This document shows positions 24,824 to 44,444 of a DNA stretch of 64,000 nucleotides, piece after piece. The notes beneath the pieces were generated by a model. The model saw nothing but the letters and a program-made list of their open reading frames with translations. It was not told where the DNA came from and did no database searches. How positions within the stretch are numbered: position 1 is the first letter of the stretch; each line of letters opens with the position of its first letter. The stretch is from Acidobacteriota bacterium (lineage in GTDB: Bacteria > Acidobacteriota > UBA6911 > RPQK01 > JAJDTT01), in contig OZ242374.1 in NCBI GenBank assembly GCA_965209055.1, forward strand, positions 5,280,001 through 5,344,000. Reading direction: 5' to 3'. Position numbers and translations under genes: made by a program.

Positions 24824-24850
24824 AAAAAGTTGGGAGCGGGAGCGGGGGCT

Positions 24851-24922
24851 GGGGCGGCGGTTTCCTAACCGCCGAACTCCGGTGTAGCAAAGTGGCGACG
24901 GAAGAACGGGCGATTGGAAATC
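24851..24922 (+). repeat. REP doublet truncated at the left att site (core GATTGGAAATC 24912-24922)
   Basis: Hairpin GGCGGTTTCCTAACCGCC; the second hairpin is cut and continues at 44562. Confidence 0.85.
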
Positions 24923-24997
24923 CGTTACCCTATCCAGATGAGTTATGGGATATATCCCTATTTATCAACAGGTTATCCCAATTCTCCCCTGTGATCA

Positions 24998-27992
24998 CTA
25001 CCCCTTGTTTTCTACCCGTTGCCTGTTTGTTGCCTGTTGCGTTTGTGAGTCTTCGTTAGCCTGTGCCTCTCGAATGCTGGCAAGAGCATGCGAACTGACG
25101 TACCCCGCATACCGCATGGTCGTGCTGATCGCCGAGTGGCCCATCAGCTTCTGCACCGTCCTCACGTCCACACCCTGCATCAGCCAGTGGCTGCAACGGA
25201 ATCGCCGCAGGTCGTGAAATCCGACCTTCAACCCCACCCGCTCGGCGGCTCGTCGCAGTGGCTTGTCCGGATTCACCCATCTCGTCCCGGTCCCGCTGTT
25301 GACAAAGACGTATGAGGTGTTCAGGTACCGTGGGAGCCCTGCCAGATATCCGGTGGCGTACTTCGACAGCGGGATCTCCCTTGTCTCGTCGTTCTTGGTG
25401 AATTCCACCCATAGCAGCCTCCGGGATAGGTCCACCCGTTTCCAGGTGAGCCACAACGCTTCTCCCTTTCGTATCCCCGTCTCGCCGATCACTGCGATCA
25501 TGGCTTGCAGGTAAGGGTTGTCTATCGCCTTGACTAGGTCGCGGAACTGTGGAACCGTCAAGGGCCGGAAGACCTTCTTCGGCTCCTTCAGATTGGGGAA
25601 CCGAATCAGCGGGTGCGTGTCCACTTCCCCGCACTCCAGCGCATAGGAAAACAGCTTGCTGATGGCGGCGATGGCGCGGTTCACCGTGGCGGGTTTGACC
25701 TGTTTCTTCCTCTGAGCGACGTAGCGGTGCAGGTCTTTGCGTTGGAACTCTTTCAAGGGTATGTTCCCCAGCATGGCATTGAGGCTCTTGAACGAACCCT
25801 CATAGCTCCGCCAGGAGCGCATGCGAGGTTTGCAGTACTCCTCGAGAAAACGCTCGTAGAAGCTCCGGACCGTCCAGATCGTGCGTTTCCCACCGGCGAG
25901 CTCTTGCTTGAGCTGCTTCCAGGTGCCGTCCAGGATGCTCGACTCGATTCGTGTTTGAAGCGCCTGTGCGCTCCGGTAATTGGGGGCGTACATTCGGAGC
26001 CGACCGGATCCGTTCGGCCAGTACTTGCTGACGACGTACCGTCGTCTCCCCCGGCGATCCTTCACCTTATGTCGCGGTAGGAACGGCGGTTTCCCTCCGC
26101 CCCCCGCACAGATCCGTGCGTGCCCGTTAGGGCACACGGCTCCTGCCTTGGGTCGTTACGGTGAGCCGTTCGCTCGGCCACGGGTGGCGAATCGTCACCG
26201 ACGGCCAGAGAAGCTTGGCCATCTTTCGGAGCCGTCTCCACGTGAAGCGCGCTCGCTGCGACCGGCGGCGCAACACCCGCATCCACTGCTCTCGCAGCCG
26301 ATATCGAAAGCCTTGCAGCCATCGTCCACTTCCGGGGACCGCAAAGTAGTTGAGCCAGCCGTTCAATACGCGGCCCAACCATTTCCCGACCTCCCAGATG
26401 TCGTCGTGCCGGCGTCTTCGCAGCCTCTCCCCCACCCGTTTCAGGGTTCGTTGCATCCGCTTCGCACTCGGTTTCCGCCCCAGCCGGAACCGCCCCTTCC
26501 GGGTCTTCGCACAGTAGTGCGTGAAGCCCAGGAAATCGAACGTTTCCGGTTTCCGCGCCCCGCGTCGCCGCCGATCCGCTGCCGCAAATCGCCCGAACTC
26601 CACCAGTCGCGTCTTTTCCGGGTGCAGTTCCAGTCCGAACTCGGCGCACCGTTCCCCCAGGTCTCGGAGAAACCGCTCCGCGTCTGCCCGCTTCTCGAAT
26701 CCGGCCACGAAGTCGTCCGCATACCGCACCAGGATCGCCTCGCCTTTCGGGACTCGTGGACGCCATTTCCGATGGAACCACTGGTCCAGCACGTAGTGCA
26801 GGTACACATTTGCCAGCACCGGGGAGACGATGGAGCCCTGAGGCGTCCCTTTCCCCGTGTCCGACCGGGTCCCTTCTTCCATCACTCCCGCGTTCAGCCA
26901 CTTGGTCAGGAGCCGCAACACCCGCCGGTCCCCGATCCGATGTTCCACGAACCGGATCATCCAGTCCCGGTCGATCGCATCGAAAAACGTTCGGATGTCC
27001 GCGTCCACGATCCAATTGACTTTCCGCCGTTCGATCCCGTAGGCCAGGGCATCCAGCGCGTCATGCGCCTTCCGTCCGGGCCGGAACCCGTAGCTGAGCC
27101 CGAGAAACTCCGCCTCATAGATCGGCGTCAGGAGCTCGTCCACCACGGCCTTCTGGAGGATCTTGTCCTCCAGTGCCGCGATCCCGAGCGGTCGTGTCCG
27201 TCCGTCCGGCTTGGGGATTCTCACCCGCCGGACGGGAGGCGCCCGGTACGCGCCCCGGTGCACGCGGCGATGCAGGTCCAGCAGTCGCTCTTCCAGCTTC
27301 GCCCCGTACTCCTCCCACCGCACTCCGTCGATTCCCGGGGCCGCATCCTTCCTCAGTCCGAGGTAGGCGCGGCGCAAGGCCTCCACGGTGATATGGTGCA
27401 ACAGCGCGGTCAGTCGCTCCTTGGGGTTTCTCGCTATGGCTCGCCGTATCCGGTCCGCCGCTTGGGACACGCTCCCCCGACTCTGCGTCCGGCGCGTGCT
27501 TTGGCACACCGAATTCCCCTTGGCTTCATCCCTTCGCTCCACCGGCTCCGCCGAGGGTTCCCCCTCTTTGTTCGCCCGCTTCATCGCTACTATGGATGAA
27601 TCCGACTGCTTCGTTTCGTCCATCATGAGGTTCGGTTTGCTCCTTTCTCATGCGGCCCTGGCTCGACCACCGGAGCGAAATGAAGCCCTCCCAGGTCCCG
27701 ACACAAGACGTACGTGCGTGCTTGGGTTCCTAGACACCGCGGTGTCCGTCTGTCCCTCACCTTCCCGGTCCAGCCGGTGTTGCCTTCGACCGCATCCACA
27801 GCCTCGGCACTTCCGTTCCTGCATGTTTCGATGCTCAATAGCCCCGCCCACACGCGCCGCTGCCGACGCTTCGCCGACACCCTCACGGGTGCCAACGCAC
27901 GGCTCGCGGAGAAACGTGGATGGTTAGTCCTTCGTTTCAGCGGACTTTCACCGCTTGTCTTGTGCCAGTTAGCCTGGCGCACAGATGCCCAT
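24998..27992 (-). CDS. int: Tyrosine integrase, spliced: exon 1 27992-27983, exon 2 26070-24998 (360 aa)
   Basis: GGAGGAG RBS then ATGGGCATCT|ATAAGGTG = MGIYKVKDRRG...; catalytic R (TGIRKGE), K (TKN), HDLRR, GHS, Y (MRYA) all present. Confidence 0.9.
25020..25038 (+). promoter_or_regulatory. Integrase arm-type binding site (left)
   Basis: TGCCTGTTTGTTGCCTGTT (tandem TGCCTGTT), identical to 44426-44444. Confidence 0.75.
26071..27982 (-). mobile_element. Group II intron (1912 nt, probably bacterial class E/F)
   Basis: 5' GTGCG at 27982; domain V GAGCCGTGTGCCCTAACGGGCACGCACGGATC (26142-26111); domain VI ending CCTACCGCGAC; RT ORF inside. Confidence 0.93.
26127..27626 (-). CDS. ltrA: Group II intron reverse transcriptase/maturase (no endonuclease domain seen)
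   Basis: RPLGI, SYGFRPGR, GTPQG, YADD, FDFLGF, domain X GWLNYF; no HNH tail. Confidence 0.93.
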   Translation of the reverse strand: MMDETKQSDSSIVAMKRANKEGEPSAEPVERRDEAKGNSVCQSTRRTQSRGSVSQAADRIRRAIARNPKERLTALLHHITVEALRRAYLGLRKDAAPGIDGVRWEEYGAKLEERLLDLHRRVHRGAYRAPPVRRVRIPKPDGRTRPLGIAALEDKILQKAVVDELLTPIYEAEFLGLSYGFRPGRKAHDALDALAYGIERRKVNWIVDADIRTFFDAIDRDWMIRFVEHRIGDRRVLRLLTKWLNAGVMEEGTRSDTGKGTPQGSIVSPVLANVYLHYVLDQWFHRKWRPRVPKGEAILVRYADDFVAGFEKRADAERFLRDLGERCAEFGLELHPEKTRLVEFGRFAAADRRRRGARKPETFDFLGFTHYCAKTRKGRFRLGRKPSAKRMQRTLKRVGERLRRRRHDDIWEVGKWLGRVLNGWLNYFAVPGSGRWLQGFRYRLREQWMRVLRRRSQRARFTWRRLRKMAKLLWPSVTIRHPWPSERLTVTTQGRSRVP

Positions 27993-28090
27993 GCATCTCC
28001 TCCTTTCTGGATCCGGGTTCTTCGCCGTGGCGCGAATCCTACCACGGCTCCAGAGAATCCGCGTAGGCGTTTAGGTCCTCCAGGTCGGAG
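27983..28090 (-). pseudogene. C-terminal remnant of an excisionase-like HTH gene overlapping the int start
   Basis: DLEDLNAYADSLEP...GGDAWAS; would end IR* after intron removal; N-terminus missing. Confidence 0.45.
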
Positions 28091-28139
28091 TCCCGGCGGC
28101 GTCTACCGCTAATTTCGGGTGAACCCCTCCAAGGCGGGT

Positions 28140-28235
28140 GACAAAACAGTCGTCGATGACTTTCGCAAAAAGTCACTGCGCGAGTTGAAGAACATCGAGG
28201 AGGCTTGGCCGGAACCCAACTACGGGCTGACTTGG
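28140..28235 (+). pseudogene. Plasmid RepA C-terminal-like fragment
   Basis: DDFRKKSLRELKNIEEAWPEPNY resembles RepA_C-family termini (from recall, not searched). Confidence 0.4.
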
Positions 28236-28513
28236 GGCGGCCTCACCCACCGGAGCGCCGCTGGGAGATGGTGGGGCTGGTGTGATCAGGACGAACGCCG
28301 TAGTCGCAAGCCCGGGAGTTCGAGACCTCGGCATCGGAGATCCGAAAGTGGGCCAAGCCGGCGGAATCGGAAGAAGGTGCTCCGGAGTGACGGGTCGAAG
28401 ATCTGCCGCTCCTCTCGCCGCCGGGGGAGCCGTGTAATGAAGCCCCTCCAGGCTTCTGTAAGTCTACCCGCTTTGTTCACTCCGATCCCATCGCGCCGAA
28501 AACCGGGAAGTCT

Positions 28514-28766
28514 GACATTTTCAAATGGCCATTGAAAGTTGACACTGGATACGACCGTCTCCCCCCATCTCCTGATTTTTCCTCCGACACTTTCGATCAA
28601 CCTCCGGTATGTATCCCAATGATCGGACCTGCGGCCTGGCTCACCGAAACAATGCGTTGGCCGGCCACGAGTCCAAAGTAGCATCCGCGAATCCTTGCGG
28701 TGGAGCTTGGGTTCCCATGGGCTCCACAGCGTAACGCTAACGTTCAACAACGAAAGGAGACTTACT
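28514..28766 (+). repeat. Conserved non-coding leader, copy A (candidate promoter + structured RNA)
   Basis: Aligns with 34837-35060 and 31061-31223; several hairpins; ends in AAAGGAGA RBS. Confidence 0.75.
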
Positions 28767-29573
28767 ATGGGATGGAAAAGTCCTGACTGGAGCGACGAAT
28801 TTTCGGGAAACAACACGAACCTGGCAAACCGTTCGGGGTGGGATGATTGGTATACGGAACTCCCCATCAACGCTGGAGTGGTGGGAGGCGGGGTTGCCAA
28901 GCTAATCAACGTTGATCCGCCCGGCGGGGACGGCGGTGATGAAGACCAGACGGTCTCCGGGGCTGTGACATCCGCATCCCAGGTTCCGGTACTCGATACG
29001 TCTCCGAACGAACGGAACAAGTGGACTGTCGTCGCGGACTTCTACGCAAAAACTCGGTACAACCCCTTGTGGGGGCATATCGGAATCTTTCTTCGAGTGC
29101 ATGATAGAGATTACCGCAAGGCAGGAGAAGCCGACACCCACCGTGACCAGACTCGGTTCGGGTGCTTCGTACGCGGAGACGAAACCAGGAATACTCCACA
29201 GGCGGCTCTTCAGTTCCATGGAGACAAGGCATCGGCTCCCGATTACAGTAAGCGATACATCCGGCGCTTCGATTTGGACGAAGACCCCTTTGACCACCCG
29301 AATACGAAGTACCGAATCCAAATCATCGAAGAGGAGTGGTTGAGTCCCCTGACCGGTTGGACTCATCGATGGAAGGGAGAGGTATGGAAGAACCCCGGAG
29401 CGAACAACGCTGTTCGAATCGGCCATTACCATTCCATCAGTGAGAACGTCCTGAGTGATCGGGACATCGCCATTCCCTCGCTGTCGGGGTCCAAGATCGC
29501 CTTGGGTAGCGGTCCTGCCCGCGCCGGCGAGGTCCATGTGGACTTTGTGGGCAACGCCGGTTGGGACTACTAA
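28767..29573 (+). CDS. Hypothetical protein A1 (268 aa, no signal peptide)
   Basis: Strong RBS; paralog of 35061-35846 (DFYA, GIFLRV, QTRFGC, EDPF, LSGSKI, GPARAG). Confidence 0.8.
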   Translation: MGWKSPDWSDEFSGNNTNLANRSGWDDWYTELPINAGVVGGGVAKLINVDPPGGDGGDEDQTVSGAVTSASQVPVLDTSPNERNKWTVVADFYAKTRYNPLWGHIGIFLRVHDRDYRKAGEADTHRDQTRFGCFVRGDETRNTPQAALQFHGDKASAPDYSKRYIRRFDLDEDPFDHPNTKYRIQIIEEEWLSPLTGWTHRWKGEVWKNPGANNAVRIGHYHSISENVLSDRDIAIPSLSGSKIALGSGPARAGEVHVDFVGNAGWDY

Positions 29574-30292
29574 GGAGAGTTCACTGGTATCCCGCTGAAG
29601 AACCCGGTTTCCCGGGAGAAGTTCAAGGCGCCTACGGCGATTTGGGTCTCCCCTTGAACGTGAACGAGTCCGGTTATCCCCGTGGACGGAGGGTTGTATC
29701 CGTCTACGGGGACCAACTCTGAGAGAAAACGGCTCAGTCGGCTCATCGGCGCAATCTCCCAGGATCGTTCCTGTGTCTCGGCCGATTTCCATCTTGGATG
29801 GAACCGGACGGTTACAATCTGCTTGCTCCCCGTGGGGTTGACGATTGACACGGTGGTCTCCTCTCCTTTCACCTTCCTTCCATAGAACCGAAAGTCGGTC
29901 CCTGGTGCTACGGCATCGGAGAAGGTCTCAAAGGCTGGTTTCCCGTCACGGTAGACGGTAATGTGGCTCAGGGCCCGAAGGGACCGGTTTGCAGGATATG
30001 TCAGACGCACCCATCCATTCCCGATGAAGTTGCCCTCGAAGTCCGGTTCGAACAGGACCCACTCGAACGAGTTTTGTCCCAGGCCATAAGTCTCCCGGTC
30101 CCCCAGGACAGGACGACCCTCAGCCGTGAACCCATGGGCCCTGAATCGAGAAGAACGCCCCTCGGCCTCCGTGACTATCAAGCCGGTGATGTAGTTGAGG
30201 GTGTTGGGATAGATAGGGGCAATCAGGGTCTTGGTCGTTTCTTGAGCAGAGAAACCCAAAAGGAGATGGAGTGCGACGATCCACGATCTCAT
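29570..30292 (-). CDS. Secreted hypothetical protein B1
   Basis: Signal peptide; paralog of 37909-38646 (LIAPI, VSIVNPTG, SRFLSELV, GET-x-IAV-x-AL). Confidence 0.8.
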   Translation of the reverse strand: MRSWIVALHLLLGFSAQETTKTLIAPIYPNTLNYITGLIVTEAEGRSSRFRAHGFTAEGRPVLGDRETYGLGQNSFEWVLFEPDFEGNFIGNGWVRLTYPANRSLRALSHITVYRDGKPAFETFSDAVAPGTDFRFYGRKVKGEETTVSIVNPTGSKQIVTVRFHPRWKSAETQERSWEIAPMSRLSRFLSELVPVDGYNPPSTGITGLVHVQGETQIAVGALNFSRETGFFSGIPVNSP

Positions 30293-30689
30293 CTAGTAAG
30301 GGCCTCCAGAGGACATCTATACTGGTCAAGTGGTGTCGACCGTCGTTCAGGTAATCCCGACTGGGAATGAAGGTATCCCGGCACGGGGGGAATGTGCAAT
30401 AACAGGGGGCGCTTCGTCTTCGAGGAAGCCGGAAGGATGTGGCAGCCGGTTGCCGGCATTCCTCCTTCGCACGTGTCAAAAAAACCGGACAACTTGACGT
30501 GCCTAATAATAGATCCCCTTTGCCGAGCACCAAGGCTATCTCACGCTAAATAGCCAGCAAATTGCCGGGAGAGCTGACTTTTTCATGCTGGGTCTTATTC
30601 CTCCGGCATGGAAGAATCAGACTTCATCTGGCCCCCCCTTGGTCAAGAACGAGACTCTCCGGCTGGCGCGCCCCGACGAGCGCCGCCGC

Positions 30690-30825
30690 TAGGATGCCAC
30701 CTTGGCCGATCATTACTATCTGGGATTCCAGCAATTTGCCGGTCGCGGTCTGAGCTATGTGGCCGAATACCAGAAGTGTTGGCTAGCCCTGATCGGTTGG
30801 CAATCGGGCGCTTTCAAGTGCCGTC
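30690..30825 (+). pseudogene. DUF4338 (transposase-associated) fragment
   Basis: DHYYLGF...GRGLSYVAEY...WLALIGWQSGAFKC; truncated. Confidence 0.55.
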
Positions 30826-31060
30826 TCCAATCGGAACTCCGCCCCCCGTCCCCCAGACCCTGGCATCCTCCAGCTGGGTCCCGGCCGTTGTGGCCTCATC
30901 AGAGTCCAAACTGGCCCCTTCCGCCCGGACTGAACTCGATGTCGATGGTCACCAACACCTGATCACTTGGTTTCCTCGGCCGAGGATCCTGGCGAACTTA
31001 TCTCCCGTCCCCTCACGTCGTGGAGGACACTCCACGAATGACAAGCGTGAGATCGCCCTC

Positions 31061-31223
31061 GACATTTGCAAATGGCCATTGACAGTGACACTGGATATGA
31101 CCGTCTCCTCCCGCATCTCCTGATATTTCCCCCGACACTTTTCACGAACCTCCGGTATGTATCCCAACAGCCGGACCTTCGGTCTGGTCCACCGAAACAA
31201 CCGGTGGGCTGGATATGAGTCCA
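31061..31223 (+). repeat. Conserved non-coding leader, copy C (partial, diverged)
   Basis: Keeps CCGACACTTT...CCGGTATGTATCCCAA and the GGAC...GAAACAA...GAGTCC hairpin; lacks the RBS-proximal 68 nt. Confidence 0.7.
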
Positions 31224-31614
31224 CACCGGTAAATGCCGTTGGATCGAGATCATTACGGAGACTGCGATAGAACTGCTTGTCAACGATCCTGACCGGATAG
31301 CGTTCCAGTTGGAGCCCGATACCGAATTGGACTCAGACTTCAAGAAACCCGAAGTCAAGACCGGCACCGTCTCTGACAAGGAGCTGGACAAGTGGCCGAA
31401 GTGCTCCATGAAGGGAGTCTACACTCGTCCTGGGCGTTCCGCGCTGTCCATCCAAATTTCGCCAATACGGGGTGAAGGCTTCTGGCGGTAGCTTTACCTC
31501 CGTCGCAGACAATCGAGAGATTCGGGGTGAACATCCACGGGTAGACACGTTTCGTCACACCTGCCCCGCAGCGGGCGATTTCATTGACGTACTGAAGGTA
31601 GAAGGAGGTCCAGA

Positions 31615-31947
31615 ATGACCGAAATAACGTTCAAGGCCGCTCTGACTCCTGCCAGACGACGCCTCGTCGAGGTGATGCAGGAGATCAACTACGGTCGGAT
31701 CGATCGGTTCGAAGTACGCGCGGGGGAGCCGGTACTCGATCCACCACCCAGGGTGGTGTGCCAGATCGTGTTCGGCAAGAACAATGGACCGAACGCTTGT
31801 CGCTACCAGGAGCAATTCGCCCTCAAGAAGCCGGTCTTGGAGTTGTTCGAGATCTTTGATCGGGAGCGGTCGCTCTCAATCCAGGAACTCGTGGTCAGCG
31901 ACGGTTTACCCGTCCGCATGACTGTGGCAGACGCGATCCGAATCTGA
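31615..31947 (+). CDS. Hypothetical protein preceding the sigma-like gene
   Basis: AGGAGG RBS; RRRLVEVMQEINYGRI...GEPVLDPPP...DGLP. Confidence 0.75.
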   Translation: MTEITFKAALTPARRRLVEVMQEINYGRIDRFEVRAGEPVLDPPPRVVCQIVFGKNNGPNACRYQEQFALKKPVLELFEIFDRERSLSIQELVVSDGLPVRMTVADAIRI

Positions 31948-32380
31948 ACCTCTGACTCGATATCAACAGCATTGTCCACACACCAGACAACCGACTGGCC
32001 GCAAGAGACGGAGGTCGTTGTGGGTGTCGCCGAAACCGGCGGCCTCACTGCGCTAACGCATCTTCGTTTGAAAACGGCCGACCCGGAAAAGATCGACACC
32101 CACTCGAGCCTACCCAAGATCCTGTGGAGGCTCAATGGGTTTCGACAAACACGACCACGGCATCGATCCATATGCTATTCGACTCATCAAATACAAAGCG
32201 AGAACGTTGGTGGGAAAAGCGGGATTTACGGCATCAGATCGCGAGGATCTGGAGCAGGAGTTGATCCTCGACCTGCTACACCGACTGCCGAGATACGACC
32301 GCAACCGCGCCCAGCGCAACTGGAGTTGACCCGCTTTCGTGGACACATCCAAAGTAAGGAAGTGAAAGGAGGAGTCCACG

Positions 32381-32695
32381 ATGGCAAGAAAGCAGCGGCG
32401 GTACCCGCCGGAGTTCCGCCAGGAGATCGTGGCGCTGGTGCGCTCGGGGCGATCGCCCGAGGCGCTGGCGCGGGAGTTCGAGCCCTCGGCGTCGGCGATC
32501 CGCAAGTGGGTCAAGCAGGCCGATCTGGACGAGGGGCACCGTAACGACGGGTTGACGACGTTCGAGCGCCAGGAGTTGCGCCAGGCGCGGCGCGAGATCA
32601 AGCGGCTGCGGATGGAGCGGGACATCTTAAAAAAAGCCGCGGCTTGGTTCGCCCGGGAGAGCGACTCGATCCCCGAAAAGGATTCAAATTCGTGA
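32381..32695 (+). CDS. IS3 transposase OrfA
   Basis: RRYPPEFR HTH, ERDILKKAAAWF; A7G slippery site at 32629-32636. Confidence 0.9.
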   Translation: MARKQRRYPPEFRQEIVALVRSGRSPEALAREFEPSASAIRKWVKQADLDEGHRNDGLTTFERQELRQARREIKRLRMERDILKKAAAWFARESDSIPEKDSNS

Positions 32696-33561
32696 AGGCG
32701 TACCGAGCCCGGTTTCCGATCCGGGTGATGTGCCGCGTTCTGGGTCTCTCCCCCAGCGGGTACTACGCTTGGCTGAAGCGGCCCCCTTCGAAGCGGGCTC
32801 GCCGGGACCAGACGCTTCGGGAAACGATCGTGTGGATCTGGAACCAGAACCGGAGAGTGTACGGTCGGCCTCGTCTGCATGCCGAGCTGAGAGCTCGAGG
32901 GGAACGGACGAGCCCGAAGCGCGTAGGTCGATTGATGAAGGAAGCCGGGATCCAGGGGGCGAGCCGGAGGCGCCGCAAGGCCGGGCTCACCCGGAGGGAC
33001 CGGAAGGCGCGCCCGGCACCGGACCTGGTGAACCGGAACTTCGCGGTTGAGGGACCGGATCAACTCTGGGTCGCGGACCTCACCTATGTCCGCACAAAGG
33101 CGGGCTGGTTGTACGTGGCCGTGGTTCTGGACGCTTGGAGCCGCCGGATCGTGGGGTGGGCAATGGCGACCCATCTGCGATCCGAACTGGTGGAGAAGGC
33201 GCTCGCCATGGCGGTGATCCAGCGCCAGCCCAAGCAGGTGATCCACCACTCGGACCAGGGAACGCAGTACACCTCGGCTGCCTTCGGCAAACGATGCCGG
33301 GAGGCGGGAGTGCGGCCGTCGATGGGCTCCGTCGGGGACGCCTACGACAACGCGATGTGCGAGAGCTTCTTCGCGACGCTGGAGTGCGAGTTGCTGGATC
33401 GTCACCGGTTCCGGAACCCGAGCGAGGCAAGGCGGGCCGTGTTCGACTTTATTGAGGGATTCTACAACCGGCGGCGCCGGCACTCGGCGCTGGGCTACGA
33501 GTCACCGGTCCACTACGAGCAGCAGGCGGCGGCGGACCAACGCCGTCTTCGAGCTGCCTGA
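32644..33561 (+). CDS. IS3 transposase OrfB (DDE), -1 frame
   Basis: WVADLTY, HHSDQG-x-QY, DNAMCESFF, YNRRRRHSALGY. Confidence 0.92.
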   Translation: MVRPGERLDPRKGFKFVKAYRARFPIRVMCRVLGLSPSGYYAWLKRPPSKRARRDQTLRETIVWIWNQNRRVYGRPRLHAELRARGERTSPKRVGRLMKEAGIQGASRRRRKAGLTRRDRKARPAPDLVNRNFAVEGPDQLWVADLTYVRTKAGWLYVAVVLDAWSRRIVGWAMATHLRSELVEKALAMAVIQRQPKQVIHHSDQGTQYTSAAFGKRCREAGVRPSMGSVGDAYDNAMCESFFATLECELLDRHRFRNPSEARRAVFDFIEGFYNRRRRHSALGYESPVHYEQQAAADQRRLRAA

Positions 33562-34419
33562 GAACGACGCCGGCACGGCCACCGTCGCACCCAGCGTCGC
33601 GCGCGACACGATTGAAGGGGGCAGGGGGGCGCTGCCCCCCTGAGACCCCCGGATGCAAAGAGACATAAAAAACTCTTAAATCCCTGGGAAGAGAGACCGA
33701 GGCCCCCTCGTTAAGCGGTATCCCATTGTGGAAAATCAGAGATTTCCCACAACGTGAGCCCTTTTGCTGACCCGTCCATAGGTCGCCCCTCACACGAAAG
33801 AAAGAGCGCTCTGTCCGTTGTCAATGGCCAAAACCCTGACATCCTCGATGGCCATTGACCGTCGTCGGGGGGAAGTCTTGCTCCCCACCGACAGAAGGAG
33901 TATTAAACCTAAGGACAACGTAGACCGCACCAATAAACCGTCCACGAAAACGGGACACCCTCACAACACTTTCATCGCCCGGGTAGTCGAGCACAAGATC
34001 GCCAACCTCATCAAGGCACAGAAGGCTGGCATTCGCGACTACCGGCGCTGCCGCTGTTCTCTGAACGATCGGTTCGAAGACGAAGACGGTCGCTCCGTCG
34101 AGCGGATAGATACCCTGGATCAGGAGCGCAACGGGCCGCACACTGGCACGCAATCGAGGCCCTCCGACGAACTTCGCTTTCTTGCCATCGACATGGGCTT
34201 CGTACTCGAAACCCTTCCTCCCGAACTCCGCGACCTGTGTCAGCGCCTCGTAGCGGAAACCGTCACCGAGATCTCCCGCAGCACCGGTGTGCCGCGGGGA
34301 ACGATCTACGAGTCCATCAAGAGGCTCCGGAAAATCTTCAGGGACGCCGGCCTGAAGGATTACCTGTGACGGCTCCGACGGTCGTAAGGGCCTGCCGCCG
34401 CAGAAGCAGCGTCCGACGA

Positions 34420-34710
34420 TAGCAGAACATCCTGAAGGTCTCGTTGAATCAAGGGTATCGCTTCATTGTGCACGACTCGCGGAAGCGGCATCTGAACTCG
34501 GACCGCCAGCACAAGAGTGTCAAAGAGTGGACCCATGGCTGTCGACGCCGGTACTGGGAATCAGTGATCCAAGAGACGAGTTCGGCGGAGACGGTCTACG
34601 AGTTTGAGACCGGGGCTCGGAAGGTGCGTCTTCCCAGGTTGGATTAGACAATGAACCTGGTGGTGGATGGACAGGTTCGGAACCCGCTGAGGCTGCTCAC
34701 GAACCGAAGG
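34420..34710 (+). pseudogene. Degenerate DDE transposase fragment
   Basis: LNQGYRFIV...VIQETSS...RKVRLP...LVVDG...PLRLLTNR; same family as 3085-3480. Confidence 0.55.
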
Positions 34711-34836
34711 TGTCCCGGCCTCGACTCGATGACCCTCTCGTCTACAACCAGTCTATCCTGTCACCAATTGTGGCATCCGGCGGATCGTGACCGAAGTGGA
34801 TGAGCCCCCGTCGACCGAAGCCTGCGCCAAGTCCAT

Positions 34837-35060
34837 ACTGGATATGACCGTCTCCCGCCGCATCGACTGATTTTTCCTCCGACACTTTCGATCAATCCCC
34901 GGTATGTATCCCAATGATCGGACCTTCGGTCTGGCTCACAGAAACAATCCGTTGGCCGGCCGCGAGTCCGTAGCAGCATTCGCGGATCATTGCGGTGGAG
35001 CTTGGGTTCCCATGGGCTCCACAGCGTAACGCTAACGTTCAACAACGAAAGGAGACTAAC
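34837..35060 (+). repeat. Conserved non-coding leader, copy B
   Basis: Includes 68 nt (34990-35057) identical to 28695-28762. Confidence 0.78.
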
Positions 35061-35846
35061 ATGGGATGGAGAAGACGTTTACCGTGGTCGGAGATTTTCC
35101 GAACGAACGCTTCGGATTTCGTGACCCAATACTCGACCTGGAATCCGATTCGGACCCAAACCCCTGTGGTCACGATTCCGATTTCCAGAAACCTGGCAAC
35201 TGTCGAACTAACCGACCCTGAAGACGATGTCTGGTCCATCGGCGGTGCGGTCACCGCGAAGTCCAAGGTCCCCACCTCCGGACAGTTCGACGAGAACGAT
35301 GACCAGACGGAACGGAATCTCTGGACCGCGACCTCCGACTTCTACGCGACCGAAAGGTTCAACGGAACCGGCGGCCACCACGGGATCTTCCTCCGGGTCA
35401 ACCCCAAGGTGTGGGGCGGAGAGGAAAACCAGACCCGGTTCGGCTGCTATATCAATGGCAAGAAGAAAACCAGACAGGGTTGTCTCCAACTGACCGGCGA
35501 CAGGTACAATGGGTCTGGGAAGGAGACGGAGGAACGTTTCTTCACCCTGACCGAGGACCCCTTCGAGGATCCGGACCGGAGGTGCCGGGTTCAGATTCTC
35601 GAAAAGGAGAAGAAGGTCAACGACGTCTACAAGCTCCATTGGAGGGCGGAGGTTCACCGCGAGAACTCCGACGGAACTTGGACCCGTATCGGCTACTACG
35701 ACTGGGTCAACGAGGACACGGTCAGGAACTCCTACAACGTCGACATCCCGACCCTTTCCGGGTCGAAAATCATGTTCGGCGTGGGTCCCGCGAGGGCCGG
35801 AACGGTGAAGATCGACCGCATCGCGACGAACTACTGGACGTACTAG
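35061..35846 (+). CDS. Hypothetical protein A2 (261 aa), paralog of A1
   Basis: Same RBS and MGW start; shared motifs throughout; both end W-x-Y. Confidence 0.8.
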   Translation: MGWRRRLPWSEIFRTNASDFVTQYSTWNPIRTQTPVVTIPISRNLATVELTDPEDDVWSIGGAVTAKSKVPTSGQFDENDDQTERNLWTATSDFYATERFNGTGGHHGIFLRVNPKVWGGEENQTRFGCYINGKKKTRQGCLQLTGDRYNGSGKETEERFFTLTEDPFEDPDRRCRVQILEKEKKVNDVYKLHWRAEVHRENSDGTWTRIGYYDWVNEDTVRNSYNVDIPTLSGSKIMFGVGPARAGTVKIDRIATNYWTY

Positions 35847-36029
35847 AAACCGTCCGCTGACAGTTCGGGGGGCAGACGATGCCTGACAATGGATCTGGTG
35901 AACAATCTGGGAGTCTTCGTCCGATATGCGAAGAAACTCCAGCCAGGTCTTGCCTCTGTTCCGAAGATCGGAGAATAAGGCGAGAGTCTCTTGATCGGAT
36001 TCGGAGAACTTCTCCACATAATCCGCTAG

Positions 36030-37659
36030 CCCGGAAAATTCACAAATGAGTGGACGGGGCTGGTGTGAGAGTCGAAAGAAAGGCCATGCCTCATTGATAT
36101 AAAAGGGTTTACTAAAAATCGACCCTTCAATGAGGTGTGGCCATGTGCAAAACAGATTGCGCGCCGAGTTTGCCATTTCACCCCGACAGAAAAATCACCG
36201 CTTGTTTCGATGGTGGCCGCATCACCTCCGATGCCAGGCTGCTGCTGCTTTACGCCCTGGATCGGCAACATCGCGTCAGTGAGGGTGTCAGCGCCTGTCT
36301 GAAGGATCGAAGAGATGTCCGCTATGTGCGCCACTCCATGCGGGAGATGATCTGCCAACGTCTGCATCAGATTCTCTGCGGCTACGAGGATTGCAACGAC
36401 GCCCAGACGTTGCGGGCGGACCCGATCTTCAAGACCGTCTGTGATCGCTTGCTCGAGAGTGGTCCAGACCTGGCCGCTCAGCCCACGTTGTGTCGGCTGG
36501 AAAACGGCGTCCAGCGCTCGGAACTGATGCGTCTGGGTCGCTGGTTGTTGCAGCTGTACCTGCGTCGGCTCATGAAGCGTCGGCCCGACAGCATCGTGCT
36601 GGACCTGGACGGCACCGACGATCCCACCCATGGCCAGCAGGAGTTCTCCTTCTACCACAGCTACTATCGAAGCCACATCCTGCATCCCCTGTTGATCTTC
36701 GATGGGGAGAGCGGGGATCTGTTGGTGGTGCTGCTGCGACCGGGCAAGAAAGGCGCCGCCGCACACTCCGTGGCCGTCTTGCGGCGAGTGGTCGAGGCCA
36801 TCCGAGCGGCGTGTCCCCGGGTGAAGATCCGGGTTCGAGCCGACTGCGGCTTTGGCACGCCGGAACTGTCGAATACTGTGAACAAGCGGGGTTACGCTAC
36901 GAGATCGGCCTGATCCGAAACACGCGGCTGCAGCAGGCGGCCGAGCCTGTGCTGGAGCGCACCCGGGAGCAGTTTCAACAAGAGGGGACCCCGCAGCGAG
37001 AGTTCGATGCGTTCCTCTATCAGGCCGGAACCTGGTCCCATCCCCGCCGGGTGGTGGTGAAAGTCGAGGTCAACTCCCGCGGGATCAACCGTCGTTTCGT
37101 GGTGAGTAATCGGACCGACCCGTCACCCCGATCGCTGTACGAGGACTACATCGACCGAGGTCAGACGGAAGACTATATTAAGCCCGTCAAGCTCCACTTG
37201 AAGAGGACCGCCTCAGTTGCCATCGCTTTCTGGCCAATCAGTTCCACTTGTTGTTGCACAGTGTGGCATACCAGATGTTCCTGATGCTGCGGGATTACCT
37301 TTACGGGACCCCCTGGCAGAAGCTGGAAGTGGAGACGTTGCGTCGTCGGATGCTCAAGATCGGAGTTCGAGTTCGGGAAACGACCCGCCGCATCTGGATC
37401 CACTTGAGCTCGGCCTACCCCGAGCAGGAGATCTTCTGGCGGGTGATGGGTCGATTACATCCGACGTAGTTGCCACCAGTCGCCACAACAACCCCGTTCG
37501 CGAACTCTCAAAGGAGGACGAGTCTCCGTAAAACAGTCTCCTGGAGGTTCACCGGCCACACTGGAGCCGAGCGGAAGGCTGAATCCCAGAACCCAAGCTC
37601 TAAGACCTACGATGCCGGCGAAAATCGAGCCCCTTTGTCGAGTTTATGAATAATGGCGG
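36030..37659 (+). mobile_element. IS1380-family element (1630 bp), TSD CTAG
   Basis: CTAG at 36026-36029 and 37660-37663; imperfect IRs CCCGGAAAATTCACAAA / CCGCCATTATTCATAAA. Confidence 0.8.
36137..37469 (+). pseudogene. IS1380 transposase, frameshifted twice
   Basis: FDGGRITSDA, GYEDCND, LDLDGTDDPTHGQQE, RADCGF spread across three frames. Confidence 0.85.
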
Positions 37660-37908
37660 CTAGGGTCTTCGCTTCTTCTATGTCTACTCCCGAATTTTGG
37701 GGCAGGCCATTGGGGTTCGAACCCCTGGCCAAGGTAGTTGAATCAGCTATAGATACCTATGGAATACAGTCTCGCGAAGCTCATTTCCTAACGCTAGCTG
37801 GGCAAATCCTAAGAGAATCCGTAGTGCCCATACTACTGTCTCGGGAGCCACGTTTTCCGGGAACTCCGAAAGTTCAGAACCGGTGATGTGTTTCATCTGA
37901 AAGGTTCT

Positions 37909-38646
37909 CTATCGGTCCGGTGTCGGGTAAGGACTGACGATAACCGAACGGAACCAGTCGGTGCGTTTCGAGTATTGCAACGCGGCGACGGCGATTCGTG
38001 TCTCCCCACGGATTCGGAGAACGCCCTGGATGACGCCGTTGTCCCCTGTCCTCACTCCGTCCAGGTCGACCAGTTCCGACAGGAACCGGCTGTGTTTGAC
38101 GTACGGACCCAGAACCACCTCCGAGTGGCGCCGTTGGGTCCCGTCCAGGTCCCAACGGACGAACTCGACCGACATCCGTTGGGACTCTCCCGTGGGGTTC
38201 ACGATGGACACCCCGGTCTGTCCCCCGGGTGACCTCTCCGCGAGCATCCAGAAACCGGGTCCCGGACGGAACGTCTGGACCACGAAAGGCTCCACGGACC
38301 GTGTCTCGTGACCGATTCTGACGACCGCGTGAGCCTGATCCGGGTTGTCGATGGTGACGAGAAGCCAACCATTGTCGGTGAATCTGCCGACCGCGATGTC
38401 AACGCCCCCATCGTGGTCCTGGATTTGGTCGTCCCCGTGGGGATAGGTCGCGGAGTAATTGTTGTCCCCATTCTCCCGGAACTCCCGGACCGAGACCTCG
38501 GTGTCGCCCCGTCCGTTTGAGATCAACAGGAGGGTGGAGTCCAGACCTCCGATCTGAGGGAAGATGGGCGCGATGAGCTGAGTCTCGACGTTTTCCCAGT
38601 AAAATGGAGTCTGTAGGAGGAATGATAAGAGGAACGTGAGTTTCAT
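37909..38646 (-). CDS. Secreted hypothetical protein B2, paralog of B1
   Basis: Start MKLTFLLSFLL; LIAPIFP, GVSIVNPTG, SRFLSELV, GETRIAVAAL. Confidence 0.8.
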   Translation of the reverse strand: MKLTFLLSFLLQTPFYWENVETQLIAPIFPQIGGLDSTLLLISNGRGDTEVSVREFRENGDNNYSATYPHGDDQIQDHDGGVDIAVGRFTDNGWLLVTIDNPDQAHAVVRIGHETRSVEPFVVQTFRPGPGFWMLAERSPGGQTGVSIVNPTGESQRMSVEFVRWDLDGTQRRHSEVVLGPYVKHSRFLSELVDLDGVRTGDNGVIQGVLRIRGETRIAVAALQYSKRTDWFRSVIVSPYPTPDR

Positions 38647-39101
38647 GTCCCCATAATACACGCCCCGAATCAATTTACGGGACTGGCGCAGGCTGGAACT
38701 CTCCGCTACACGGTCCAAGCTGTTGTTGTCGGGATGGGAGGCTTGCCGGTTATCTCCGTCTTCTCCCCTGATCTAGTCACAGCAACTCGATCAACCGTGT
38801 TCGGATACCGTCGGAAAACCCCGTGACCTTTTGGACGAACCCGATAGGGTGTTGGACATCCACACCTATGGAGTTGCGGATAGTGACCGCCTTGGACGGG
38901 TCCTTGAACCAGAACCGACAGATTTGCTTCCTCGGGCTGAAGCCGCGGGAGGAGACGATTGGAAGTAGGAGTGCGGACGCGATCCGTCTGAACGCATGGG
39001 GTTCTGCTCGACGTTGATTGGGTAGGGTCAGAATTCAGGCGGCGTGGTGTCGACTACATCTTCGTCTCTATTTTGTGGATTGAGCCCTTTGTTCTTTGTC
39101 G

Positions 39102-39446
39102 TCATGACCTTCCGCTCGCGCGAACTTTGCTGACCACCGAGAGCAGGCCTTCCGCTGCATTTAGAACCTGGGTGACCTGTTGAAGCTTTGCCAAGGCGGT
39201 TTTCAGACCGTCGATGCCTGTGAGAAGACCCTCTTCGTTTTCTTTCAAGCCGTCACGAATGTCTGCCAGGGCCAGGTTCCCGATACGCAGCCTCGCCGCT
39301 TGGGTCTCCAAGAGCACTCTTCCGGCTCGATCAATCTCTTCCTTGGTCCTCTCCCGCAAGGCCAAATGCCATTCGGGAGACATCATTCGCACTACCGTAT
39401 TCCGCAGTTGCCGAACTGTTTCGATTCGAATCTTGAACGGCGCCAT
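39102..39446 (-). CDS. Hypothetical helical protein
   Basis: RBS (GAGGA); starts 5 bp after the upstream lipoprotein stop; heptad Leu pattern. Confidence 0.65.
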   Translation of the reverse strand: MAPFKIRIETVRQLRNTVVRMMSPEWHLALRERTKEEIDRAGRVLLETQAARLRIGNLALADIRDGLKENEEGLLTGIDGLKTALAKLQQVTQVLNAAEGLLSVVSKVRASGRS

Positions 39447-39451
39447 GGGAC

Positions 39452-40447
39452 CTAATCCTCTGTACCCTCAGCAATCGCTTCCAGAAAAGCAACGAGTTCA
39501 CCCATGTCATGAACCAACGCAGCAATGTTGGGTTCACGCCCTTCCACAAGGGCCACAAAGCTCATCTTCAGGTTCTTCGCAGCATCCGCCGTCGCGGCGA
39601 CACTCGAAAGCAGCAACGTCGATGTCAGCACGGTCTTGCGATCCTCTTTCCACCCCGATGGAAGGGTGCCGCTGCCTTGGAAAGGATCGATGATCCTCTC
39701 CGTTTCCAACGATTGCAGGCGCACCAGCAGATCTGTCTCCAGATCTTCGGAAATAAAGGACATTGCGCTCTGCTGGATCTCGAGTTCTCTTTCCAGCGTC
39801 CCAACGCGTTTCTTCAACTCACTCTCCAGTTCCTTCTTCTGAAAGTTCCCGACCACGATTTCGACGACTGGACCAATAAAATCCAATACCGGCTGCCCAC
39901 CGATCTCAGCACCCCGGATGCGGCTGTTGAGGTTTCCCAACGCCTGGAATACTCCATCGGCCGATCTTCCCAGATCTCCTCGGGTCTCCCTGTCCGCCAG
40001 AGCCCCGAGCTGAATGAAGTAAGCCTTCAGCAGGTTGGCATGACGACGAAGGTCGGCCAACAGAGACAATCGCTTCTTCAGAAGAGCGTTGTGCTCGACA
40101 ATTGCCTTCTGGCGTTTCTCCGGTGTCATGTTCTGACGCAGCCGGATGAGTATGGTGCTGTCTCCGTCTATGGCTGCCGCTCCGGCTTCTTCAATGAGCA
40201 GCCCAGTGGCATCCGCATACGCAATGCCCGCCCGGGAGAACTCCCTGAACTGGTTGAGTCGTGCTGTCGCGCACGAGGTCGCGAGTAGCAAGAGAAGAGC
40301 TATTGAACTTCTTGATAGAGGACAAGATCTGAGATTGGATCGCCAACATGAAAAAATTGTCTTCTCCTGACTCGGGCTCTTGAAGCCCGGAATGTATCTC
40401 CTGCAACTCACCCGGAAAAGCATCTTCTCAGTCGCAGGCATTAACAT
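39452..40447 (-). CDS. Hypothetical helical lipoprotein (start uncertain)
   Basis: Lipobox-like LLLLLATSC near 40275; long amphipathic helices. Confidence 0.7.
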   Translation of the reverse strand: MLMPATEKMLFRVSCRRYIPGFKSPSQEKTIFSCWRSNLRSCPLSRSSIALLLLLATSCATARLNQFREFSRAGIAYADATGLLIEEAGAAAIDGDSTILIRLRQNMTPEKRQKAIVEHNALLKKRLSLLADLRRHANLLKAYFIQLGALADRETRGDLGRSADGVFQALGNLNSRIRGAEIGGQPVLDFIGPVVEIVVGNFQKKELESELKKRVGTLERELEIQQSAMSFISEDLETDLLVRLQSLETERIIDPFQGSGTLPSGWKEDRKTVLTSTLLLSSVAATADAAKNLKMSFVALVEGREPNIAALVHDMGELVAFLEAIAEGTED

Positions 40448-40522
40448 TTTCCTTCCCCCATCAACGCAGACCTTGGGAAAATCTAAACGTAGCCTTCTCT
40501 TGGATCAGCCCGACTAACGCGG

Positions 40523-41362
40523 TTACCTTCCCTTGGCCCGGGTCGCCTTATTGGCACCTGTCGCACGCAGGTGTGAGATTCTGCTCAGCAGATCGAACCA
40601 GAATGGCGCACCGAGACTGATCGCCATGACCGTCATGATCCACCCGACGATCATTCGAAAAGTGATTTTCGGGAAACCTCCCGGATAGCCGATCGGAAAC
40701 GTCCCGATCTGCTTTTCCGCGTTAATCAAGATAGCGTCTTCGTTGCTGCCCGCTTTGCCGGCCTCGGCCGCAATCACCGTGCGCAACGCATCGTTTTTCC
40801 ACAACTGCTCGGCGATATGGATCGAGTCGGCGTTGAAAGCAACCGTAACGACCATGGCGATCGCCAGCAGGAAATACTTGACCTGGCGCTTATACCAGCC
40901 GGAGACTCGGTCCATGCCGTCGTCGAACCACGCGGACAGTCGCTGCTTAGTGCCATCGACTGTGTCCTCGTCCGTTTTCACCAGGCTGAGCAGAAGATCT
41001 CGCGCGGGATTGGCACTCTCCATCTCTTTGATGGTGTCGCGGAGTTGGCAGGCGGTCAGCTCGCTTACGCTTTTCCCGGCCTTGTCCCTGGCAACGACTT
41101 CGAGAAGCGCGGCGGTGAAAATCTCAGGCTGGATATACGAGGGCAACTTGCCCGGCTTGCGCAGGCCCTTGATCAGCGGATGTTTGTAGATTGACCGTGC
41201 GTACTCGCTGCCTATGAGGTTCTTGATGCCCTTCTCAAGATTCTTGGAGCGGAGACCGAAAATACTGGCGATAATCTCCTGTATCGAGCTGCAAACCAGA
41301 CTCAGCAGCACGTAGAAAAAGATCAGTCCGATAGCGACGTCCACAATCGGGGTGTCCAGCAT
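40523..41362 (-). CDS. Hypothetical membrane protein
   Basis: GAGGAG RBS; DVAIGL, LPSYI, WFDDGMDRVSGWYKR, SLGAPFWFDLL. Confidence 0.8.
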   Translation of the reverse strand: MLDTPIVDVAIGLIFFYVLLSLVCSSIQEIIASIFGLRSKNLEKGIKNLIGSEYARSIYKHPLIKGLRKPGKLPSYIQPEIFTAALLEVVARDKAGKSVSELTACQLRDTIKEMESANPARDLLLSLVKTDEDTVDGTKQRLSAWFDDGMDRVSGWYKRQVKYFLLAIAMVVTVAFNADSIHIAEQLWKNDALRTVIAAEAGKAGSNEDAILINAEKQIGTFPIGYPGGFPKITFRMIVGWIMTVMAISLGAPFWFDLLSRISHLRATGANKATRAKGR

Positions 41363-41583
41363 CAATCTCTCCTCTCTTTGGGTTGGTCGCTACCCTGCAT
41401 TTCTCACCACATGGAACAAGGAACGGAAAATGAACCGCTGTGTGGGCGATTCTTCATCCATATGACCTTCCCGCTGGCCCACTCCAACTGCCGGACAACT
41501 TCCATCTCCGTCGCGATCCTCCGCTTCAACCAGTCCCCCTTGGATACGCCTGTCACCGAGCCGCGACTGAGGCTTCGCCATGT

Positions 41584-41955
41584 TTATTTCTCCATGACGA
41601 GACCGATCAGAAAGCTCACCAAGCCGCCCACGGCGGCTCCCAAGGTCAGCATCAGGCCGACCACCTTCCACATGGTTTCAACGCCCATCTTGTCGGATAG
41701 CCCGGTCTCAAGGGTCTTGATGTCCTTCGCGTGCCGGTGCAGATCTTCCTGGACGCTGTGCATGAGGAGGTCGATCGTTTCCTTGTCCGATTTTTTTTCG
41801 ATCTCGCGCTCGATCTTATCGAGGCGCACTTGAATCTCACGACGATGATCGTCGAGGATGCCGCGGAACTCGTTTCGCCAAGACTCGAAGGTTCGCACGA
41901 GTAGGCGCTCGCTCTCCTTCCAGTCAAAGTGCTGGCCCGGATGTGACTCGTCCAT
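41584..41955 (-). CDS. Coiled-coil protein with C-terminal TM helix (holin/XhlA-like)
   Basis: AGGAGG RBS before MDESHPG; charged coiled coil then a hydrophobic tail. Confidence 0.6.
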   Translation of the reverse strand: MDESHPGQHFDWKESERLLVRTFESWRNEFRGILDDHRREIQVRLDKIEREIEKKSDKETIDLLMHSVQEDLHRHAKDIKTLETGLSDKMGVETMWKVVGLMLTLGAAVGGLVSFLIGLVMEK

Positions 41956-42039
41956 GGGGTCCTCCTTGTTGCCACCAAGCGTGGGAAGTCTTGTGGAACG
42001 TCTCTCCACAAATGATTTGGGGCATGGTGTCGGGTTGTG

Positions 42040-43560: not shown

Positions 43561-43603
43561 CCCGTCACGGGTGTCATTTTGGGCCTTCCCGCAGGGATCA
43601 ATG

Positions 43604-43842
43604 GGACGGGAGCGCCCCCCCCAGGGGGTGTTGCGCAGATGTGAATCGCGCAACACCCCCGCGCCCGCACTGGGCGGCAAAAAGGGGGGGTCGCTCCCGT
43701 CCACCTCTATTTTCCCCGTGCGGCCACCCGGTGGCCGGAAATGGGGCCGTAACTGACTGAAAGAAAAGAAGCTCGGGGAGAGTGCATTTGTGAATCACCG
43801 GGACCGCTTTTTGTGAATCCACCCCCTTTGTCCCATTCACAT
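43604..43842. other. Structured non-coding element with repeated TGTGAAT boxes
   Basis: 11-bp outer IR (43604-43614/43692-43702), 13-bp inner IR (43624-43636/43648-43660), four TGTGAAT motifs. Confidence 0.65.
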
Positions 43843-44216
43843 CCCGGATCGGGCGCGAGACCCTCTTTTCGCACTGCCGAAACGAGCCTCCATTGGCCCT
43901 TGCGACTGCCAAATGCGTTCAACGTCAATCACGACCTGGAAGGAGCGACTTTCCGCCGCTGGTTGCAACTCGACCGCCCGCTTCAGTGCGGCCGTCACCC
44001 CGCCACAAGAGACGAATCGGGGGCAACCAGGTCTTTTTCGGCGTTACCGATGGTCACGGCGGTTTTACGCCCAACTGTCAAAACATTGGACGCGTAGGAT
44101 GGCCCCTGTTGACCTGAAACAGGCGGACGAAGGGTCTGGCGCCTTTGATTCGGAGGCGTGAGAAGGAACCCTGCGCACAATGGCGGCGCGGCGTATTTCG
44201 TGGTAGCGTCCAACCC

Positions 44217-44387: not shown

Positions 44388-44425
44388 GGGAAAAAAGCGT
44401 GTCGGCTTTCAGGAGCAAAATCTAC

Positions 44426-44444
44426 TGCCTGTTTGTTGCCTGTT
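44426..44444 (+). promoter_or_regulatory. Integrase arm-type binding site (right)
   Basis: Identical to 25020-25038, about 105 bp inside the right core. Confidence 0.75.

Follow-up and report, generated by a model that had tools for sequence, protein, structure and literature searches.

An integrase gene split by a group II intron

We analyzed a 64,000-nt stretch of the genome of an Acidobacteriota bacterium (GCA_965209055.1, contig OZ242374.1, positions 5,280,001 to 5,344,000), hereafter the window. It contains a tyrosine integrase gene that is interrupted near its start codon by a group II intron, and the gene forms one end of an integrative element, hereafter the island. The coordinates of the intron, its exons, its pairing elements and the island are collected in Table 1.

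Table 1. Features of the intron, the integrase gene and the island (window coordinates; IBS, intron-binding site; EBS, exon-binding site; RT, reverse transcriptase; ORF, open reading frame; REP, repetitive extragenic palindrome)
Feature	Position	Strand	Basis
Shine-Dalgarno-like GGAGGAG of the integrase, 4 nt 5' of ATG	27997..28003	-	sequence; present in 26/26 paralogs
5' exon, coding part ATGGGCATCT (codons 1-3 and base 1 of codon 4)	27983..27992	-	
IBS2 GCATG, positions -12 to -8, containing the integrase start codon	27990..27994	-	5/5 with EBS2 CATGC
IBS1 GCATCT, positions -6 to -1	27983..27988	-	6/6 (one G-U) with EBS1 GGATGC
Group II intron, 1912 nt, GTGCG...AC, IIB-like pairings, protein without endonuclease (En) domain	26071..27982	-	
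EBS2 CATGC, intron nt 158-162, 13-nt internal loop of Rfam domain I model	27821..27825	-	
EBS1 GGATGC, intron nt 186-191, terminal loop of conserved domain I hairpin (Rfam model)	27792..27797	-	
Candidate EBS3 U, intron nt 251, unpaired in basal domain I stem	27732	-	opposite exon +1 A
Intron-encoded RT/maturase, 499 aa, YADD at 26723-26712	26127..27626	-	
Domain V	26111..26142	-	RF00029; compensatory changes among relatives
Domain VI, bulged A at 26078, 8 nt from the 3' splice site	26074..26109	-	
3' exon, remaining tyrosine integrase, 356 codons and stop	24998..26070	-	Pfam Phage_integrase, 89 bits
Integrative element, 19,650 bp including the intron, integrase at right end	24912..44561	-	direct repeats; empty locus in relatives
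attR core, right copy of 11-bp direct repeat GATTTCCAATC	24912..24922	-	
attL core, left copy of 11-bp direct repeat GATTTCCAATC	44551..44561	-	
Conserved left-end motif ACTACTAAACATTAACGTTTTCA	44507..44529	-	family comparison
74-nt dispersed REP-like repeat; hairpin rejoined across the island, inferred attB	24849..24922	not assigned	
IS3-type transposase ORF (rve, HTH_21) within the island	32644-33561		
DDE_Tnp_1_4 transposase fragment within the island	36490-37284		

On the minus strand, GGAGGAG (28003-27997) is followed after 4 nt by the ATG (27992-27990), then by GGCATCT ending at 27983 and by the intron from 27982. The intron is inserted in sense orientation between bases 1 and 2 of integrase codon 4 (T/AT, the slash marking the insertion point), 10 nt after the ATG. 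Its 3' end, CCTACCGCGAC (26071), runs into ATAAGGTGAAGG, and the 3' exon opens with ATAAGGTG at 26070, whose first base, A, is IBS3. Reading from the ATG without splicing gives MGICAPG and a stop, so that the frame is closed after 7 codons, and exons joined by script yield an open frame of 360 aa that begins MGIYKVKDRRGR. A full-length integrase is predicted from the window copy only after splicing, and its MGIY N terminus only after exon ligation, because the intron splits codon 4.

The protein is a tyrosine recombinase by its PF00589 score (89 bits vs a cutoff of 27.1). Alignment to the solved integrase chain 5c6k_A keeps R (TGIRKGEA), K (TKND), H and R (HDLRR), H (GHS) and Y (MRYAG), the R..K..HxxR..H..Y residues of the 3' exon that we take to be catalytic. 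The original prediction for this locus, made from the window alone, had claimed a joined 360-aa frame that starts MGIYKV and retains all catalytic residues, and both the script joining and this alignment bear it out. Narrower identities were rejected: the integrase scores 97.3 for XerA (cutoff 220), 95.1 for XerC (cutoff 335) and 63.1 for integron integrase (cutoff 265), and it reaches none of the NCBIfam equivalog cutoffs for XerC, XerD, XerA or integron integrase. The predicted N terminus also agrees with intron-less homologs, which begin MGIYK at seven of the nine loci inspected. Those in genomes G005, G004, G007, G003 and G006 (83-94% identity) and in G035 and G010 (71%) start with MGIYK, then V or A, then KDR; of the other two, a relative at 51% identity has MAINRV at its N terminus and the second is a 39% relative.

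The final 16 nt of the 5' exon (within window 27983-28000) fold into a perfect hairpin (AGATGC-ATGG-GCATCT) whose loop contains the start codon; the stretch folds at -8.6 kcal/mol for 30 nt, including a 3-bp upstream stem. The 5' arm of this hairpin is similar to EBS1, and the hairpin is not preserved in the 71% homologs.

The intron has the anatomy of a group II intron. Its 5' end reads GTGCG (27982-27978; the GUGYG rule) and its 3' end CGCGAC, with AC at 26072-26071 (the AY rule). Both ends are the limits of the 100% identical copies described below. At Rfam gathering thresholds, RF02005 (group-II-D1D4-6) matches 27948-27725 over its full model, 1-225, at 160.7 bits (cutoff 49). The architecture of domains I to IV, a domain V with an AGC triad and a 2-nt bulge, and a domain VI with a bulged A complete the picture. 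A Moco riboswitch match over domains V and VI is sub-threshold (23.9 bits vs a cutoff of 36) and was rejected.

The intron protein, encoded in domain IV, is a group II intron RT/maturase (TIGR04416 of NCBIfam, 363.8 bits vs a cutoff of 300; RVT_1, 125.6 bits). GIIM scores 19.7 bits, under its cutoff of 23, and domain searches found no En domain in the 499 aa. The GTG start at 26137 in the ORF track falls within domain V (26142-26111), as the original prediction had noted. Among Protein Data Bank sequences the protein matches IIC reverse transcriptases best (1.1e-44), but other classes follow only a little behind. Structural class IIC is ruled out by the presence and co-variation of EBS2. The pairings are IIB-like: a single domain I base pairs with the first 3'-exon base, instead of a delta-delta' contact beside EBS1; the U that precedes EBS1 on its 5' side in every copy would not pair with the +1 T of related introns. 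"IIB-like" refers here to the EBS-IBS pairings only, with no formal class (A-F, CL or ML) assigned.

Intron copies, empty sites and exon-binding sites

We searched the genome, a single contig of 6.08 Mb (C1), for further copies. There are three copies of the intron, each at the same base of a different integrase paralog; they are 100% identical across precisely nt 1-1912, with flanks that differ slightly. The intron protein is also found three times. The integrase itself has 26 full-length paralogs (88-100% aa identity), of which 23 are intron-less and carry ATGGGCATCTAY-AAGGTG uninterrupted, in the context GGAGGAGATGC ATG GGC ATC TAY AAG GTG. These are exact empty sites. The intron boundaries are thus fixed independently, because three identical copies span nt 1-1912 and 23 of 26 paralogs join the exon ends, and the predicted interval of 27982-26071, beginning 10 nt after the ATG, proves exact to the base. 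Contig depth (~57 and ~50 over the intron vs ~20 over unique flanks) fits three copies. In this genome the integrase family is expanded to 26 full copies; of the other same-genus genomes, G004 has ~9 matches and the remaining six have 0-2. One other RT gene (L038, C1:1095669-1096697) is 36% identical to the intron protein, and a 201-nt 5' fragment of a related intron (L004, C1:5641015-5641215 of the window genome, G000) has 84% identity and the EBS1 loop GGGCGC.

The exact -12 to +1 target is present in 22 of the 26 paralogs (the other four have a 1-2 nt insertion in IBS2), and these perfect targets comprise 3 occupied and 19 empty sites. Two of the occupied elements have an empty twin. After removal of the intron in a script, the element at C1:3710022 (with intron) and that at C1:2810397 (without) are 100% identical over 9374 bp upstream of the integrase, and the pair C1:783102 (with) and C1:2828159 (without) is identical over 2994 bp. 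At +2 each twin retains its own base (T or C), and this flanking marker was therefore not co-converted.

Related introns are found in same-genus genomes, with ~88% DNA identity and 87-90% protein identity: 10 loci in G002, 11 in G007 (12 protein matches, two from one copy) and 1 in G004 (L039-L041, L056, L057 and L065-L081). None of the conclusions depends on the unpublished genome G016. None of these 22 sister loci is an insertion at an integrase start. Instead, the sister insertion-site consensus is GGAGcGGCGaCT/TTCTTGyCGCC, in the loops of REP-like hairpins. The exons fold as a hairpin across the insertion point in 19 of the 20 sister loci with an intact 5' junction (-9.0 to -23.0 kcal/mol), the exception being L040 (-4.9 kcal/mol); by the same folding, the integrase sites give -2.5 kcal/mol. 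L040 (G007:C2, ~3931640) is thus a non-hairpin sister copy. It lies after AGGAGATGCGGCT, and its +1 G is unpaired with EBS3. The position could be 8 nt into another ORF, starting ATGCGGCT/GACC. An ectopic insertion close to a start codon is one possible reading of L040.

When the domain I sequences are aligned with those of the ~88% identical sister introns, the differences are concentrated in three places, EBS1, EBS2 and EBS3. The EBS1 loop reads GGATGC in the window genome, AGTCGC in G002 and G007, and AACCCC in G004, opposite exons GCATCT, GCGACT or GCGGCT, and GGGGTT, respectively. A fourth variant, AGTCCC opposite GGGACT, was read for L072 from the printed alignment line. The EBS2 loop is CATGC here vs GCTCC in the sisters, opposite GCATG vs GGAGC or GGAGT, and EBS3 is U here vs A in the sisters, opposite +1 A vs +1 T. 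We scored these pairings in 22 full-length copies from four genomes, a set outside which stand the 5'-truncated L039 and L081, the fragment L004, and L072, which the search pattern missed. IBS1 pairs 6/6 in 21 of the 22; IBS2 pairs 5/5 in 13, 4/5 in 8 and 3/5 in 1; and IBS3 pairs in 21. If lineages are swapped, the mean number of pairs falls from 5.95 to 4.77 (IBS1), 4.55 to 2.23 (IBS2) and 0.95 to 0.05 (IBS3). Judged from this co-variation, the exon-binding sites have been re-aimed between sister genomes, each predicted set matching its own insertion site. The pairing of EBS1 GGATGC (27797-27792) with exon GCATCT, proposed in the original prediction, is upheld both by the terminal loop of the Rfam model and by the co-variation with exons in related introns.

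Splicing, spread and alternative explanations

We consider it very probable that this is a selfish, recently mobile and retargeted group II intron that parasitizes the integrase family of integrative elements. On this reading, divergence of the exon-binding sites would have shifted the intron away from REP hairpin loops and onto the initiation region of the integrases, GCATG-G-GCATCT/A. Transcription from the integrase promoter would yield a pre-mRNA in which a stop ends the integrase frame after 7 codons, and maturase-assisted splicing would rejoin T/AT to restore the MGIYKV integrase. The excised lariat-protein particle would then reverse-splice into other integrase copies, which would serve the intron as a repeated, tolerated landing site. 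Lowered integrase output would be a by-product with no dedicated regulatory role, probably buffered by intact paralogs. The sole full-length copies in the genome sit in integrases, so later insertions are most simply derived from RNA spliced out of integrase transcripts, and these transcripts have in all probability been spliced in the recent past. As no flanking marker was co-converted, retrohoming fits better than recombination. For introns whose protein has no endonuclease domain, priming at replication forks is expected. Cumulative GC skew places the origin at ~1.44 Mb and the terminus at ~4.20 Mb; the empty twins of the intron-bearing elements are both head-on to replication, and the occupied twins are co-directional. 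This strand bias is not significant (occupied sites 3/3 co-directional vs 16/26 sites overall; hypergeometric P = 0.215).

The intron might instead have spread as DNA, through recombination between homologous paralogs or gene conversion, for which the flanks are near-identical for ~75 nt upstream and >1 kb downstream. We nevertheless regard this as very improbable, since the +2 base differs between occupied sites and matches each empty twin, in twins otherwise 100% identical, and since EBS1, EBS2 and EBS3 match the site exactly. A different objection concerns splicing itself, which might be too poor, or blocked by translation 10 nt upstream, leaving three integrases silent and their islands immobile unless served by other copies. 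The start codon lies inside IBS2, a ribosome on MGICAPG-stop would enter the first 14 nt of domain I, the G of the domain V triad is mismatched with A, and the RF00029 match is marginal. On the other hand, the intron could not have reached three sites without being excised as RNA, and every donor found lies in an integrase gene; moreover, the same domain V is present in lineages with 10 (G002) and 11 (G007) loci. We hold such a knock-out to be improbable.

It is also unlikely that the intron is a regulatory throttle, in which limitation of island excision and integration by splicing efficiency would be the selected function. In its favor, the integrase frame is closed without splicing, and since IBS2 and IBS1 together span the AUG and codons 2-4, ribosome binding and EBS-IBS pairing should be mutually exclusive. 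There is also a precedent in Sinorhizobium meliloti, where unproductive splicing of RmInt1 is reported to limit transposition of its host element, ISRm2011-2 (PMC4238363). Yet for every interrupted integrase there are intact paralogs whose elements share its attachment (att) core. In the window's TTTCCAA group these are C1:4721929, 1126245 and 5216684, with 94% aa identity and near-identical left ends, and the supply of integrase from another copy is plausible because three intact paralogs share the att core and the left end. Three identical copies beside 19 empty perfect targets point to a very recent invasion that left no time for a function to be selected, and sister genomes carry the intron outside integrase genes. 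A related idea casts the intron as a hyperparasite that was re-aimed at the island integrase start, where its splicing would gate integrase translation and damp island mobility, and host or intron could be selected to keep the device. It arises because sister introns split the att core of attB-type hairpins and the target here is the islands' own integrase start; we find it doubtful.

Several observations weigh against the selfish, recently mobile intron proposed above. With just 3 of the 22 perfect-target paralogs filled, homing must be inefficient or else very recent. This metagenome-assembled genome was built from long reads, and polishing could have homogenized repeats and exaggerated the 100% identity. 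The original prediction had described domains V and VI and the YADD RT as apparently intact; YADD, the bulged A and the architecture of domain V are as described, but RF00029 matches 26144-26071 only marginally (41.0 bits vs a gathering cutoff of 40), and in the Rfam alignment the G of the AGC triad stands opposite A, not U. This G-A pair is invariant in the multi-copy sister introns, GAGCC...GGAUC of domain V is kept in all four genomes, and compensatory changes occur inside its helix among related introns. Folding domain I as a check of the EBS1 loop gave a divided answer: the Rfam model places EBS1 in a terminal loop, whereas the single-sequence minimum free energy fold pairs EBS2 and two EBS1 bases and does not leave the loops free. 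The loop assignment used here is based on the Rfam model alignment and co-variation.

Finally, no spliced exon RNA from the locus was identifiable in the contigs of runs X12, X13, X1 and X3. Exon joints of 26068/26070 to 27983 were rejected as spliced RNA and assigned to intron-less paralogs (depths 68-267 vs ~20 for unique flank). The search of sequence runs had given 11 RNA runs with 0.05-0.09 of the sampled words and 4 runs, of unspecified kind, with 0.73-0.80. An exact 33-nt 5'-junction pattern (one pattern length) had 0 matches in metagenome contigs. X1 and X3 contain only short pieces of a related intron, with 1-6 differences per piece. Contigs of X1 (a sponge metagenome) and X3 (a metatranscriptome) match the first ~140 intron nt (window 27846-27984) with 0-6 differences per piece, at word depths of 172-616; the 5' RNA of the related intron seems abundant in X1 and X3, which says nothing on the window locus.

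Introns in mobility genes are already known, and the window case is a clear further example. Ll.LtrB interrupts ltrB, the relaxase gene of a conjugative element from Lactococcus whose transfer depends on splicing, and is like the window intron in being inside a mobility gene of a mobile element. It is a IIA intron with an endonuclease domain in its protein and a mid-gene position, and its host element is not known to form a 26-copy family. RmInt1 (PMC4238363, PMC4615759) shares more than one trait with the window intron: its protein lacks the endonuclease domain, it homes in sense orientation into a repeated mobile element of the host genome, its relatives have diverged target specificity, and the host mobility gene depends on splicing. 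The window intron is unlike RmInt1 in that its host gene is a tyrosine integrase, not a transposase, with the site at codon 4 and IBS2 over the start codon. The nearest plasmid-borne ltrA genes have 55-59% identity. In Tn5397, a conjugative transposon of Clostridium difficile, a group II intron lies in orf14, likewise within a gene of an integrated mobile element, although that gene is not a recombinase, host and class differ, and transposition of the intron was not demonstrated (PMC4430133). IIC-attC introns, found at the attC hairpins of integrons (PMC3001079, PMC7923331), resemble the sister copies in occupying hairpins that serve as tyrosine-recombinase sites. The window lineage differs from them in that EBS2 is present and insertion is inside the hairpin loop, so it is not IIC, and the window copy differs in lying in a recombinase gene and not in a recombination site.

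We found no report of a group II intron inside a tyrosine-integrase gene in the literature searched, which is weak evidence of novelty, as most subscription journals lay outside it. The words "integrase" and "recombinase" are absent from a paper on introns in phages (PMC12350094). The locus adds integrative-element tyrosine integrases to the mobility genes that host introns (relaxase, transposase). It also offers a clear natural record of target change in a group II intron, with three pairing sets that differ between sister genomes, and it makes filled and empty twin sites available within one genome. Because the splice site is so near the start codon, splicing and the initiation of translation must influence each other. 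In other respects the locus conforms to what is established for group II introns of bacteria, which live inside other mobile DNA.

The island and its element family

The interval that carries the intron has the features of a site-specific integrative element, namely an integrase at its end, terminal direct repeats and an empty site in relatives. A gene of the phosphotriesterase family (ending at window position 24784) adjoins a SelA-like gene (from ~44574) in G008, G002, G005 and G004, and the two are ~76 nt apart in G001. The whole 19,650-bp interval is therefore an insertion, because its flanking genes adjoin or nearly do so in five sister genomes. With this, the claim that the intron rides on an island is borne out, and the 11-bp repeats give the island its bounds. 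Rejoining the outer flanks yields the REP-like hairpin GGGCGATTTCCAATCGCCC. The cargo is mostly without Pfam matches, apart from two ORFs of insertion sequence (IS)-type transposases.

Twin comparisons expose the ends of these elements, with the left-end motif ACTACCRAACRTTAACGTTTTCA on one side and the right end just past the integrase. The motif occurs once in the window vs 0 times in each of 100 shuffles. The genome has 28 occurrences, all but one followed by a same-strand integrase, which lies 1.5-24 kb downstream in 26 of the 27 cases. The elements span ~3 to 25 kb and sit in the loops of REP hairpins that resemble tRNA anticodon arms. They share the conserved left-end motif and the integrase at the right, and fall into the core types TTTCCAA, TTTCCTA, CTAACAG and CTGTTAG. 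Sister introns sit in the loop of the same hairpin kind that islands use as attB, and the site in G004, GTGGGGGTT/TTCCTACCCCCAC, matches the TTTCCTA core type. Intron and islands may compete for hairpin sites, because both enter this hairpin kind.

A tRNA-gene-targeting island is not supported by ARAGORN or Rfam. ARAGORN calls no tRNA gene in the window, and none of its 69 calls in the genome (68 tRNAs and one tmRNA) was noticed, by eye, beside integrase copies; the tail of copy L021 (~1390-1500) has no Rfam tRNA match at E<=1. The 74-nt REP-like repeat is not called a tRNA by ARAGORN either, though two odd calls overlap such repeats. The integrase-proximal tails of 16 of the 26 copies match the 5' part of tRNA-Arg by BLAST, from nt 4 or 10 to ~27-41 (87-97% over 17-38 nt; no match in the window copy), and this similarity suggests an ancestral att site in an anticodon loop. 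The repeat, with its CGGCGGTTAGGAAACCGCCG-type hairpin, occurs in the window, at C1:3248923-3249395 and at over 100 other places in the genome, in part as tandem arrays with an 80-nt period. The locus as a whole is nested mobile DNA, with IS elements in the island, the island in a REP and the intron in the island's integrase.

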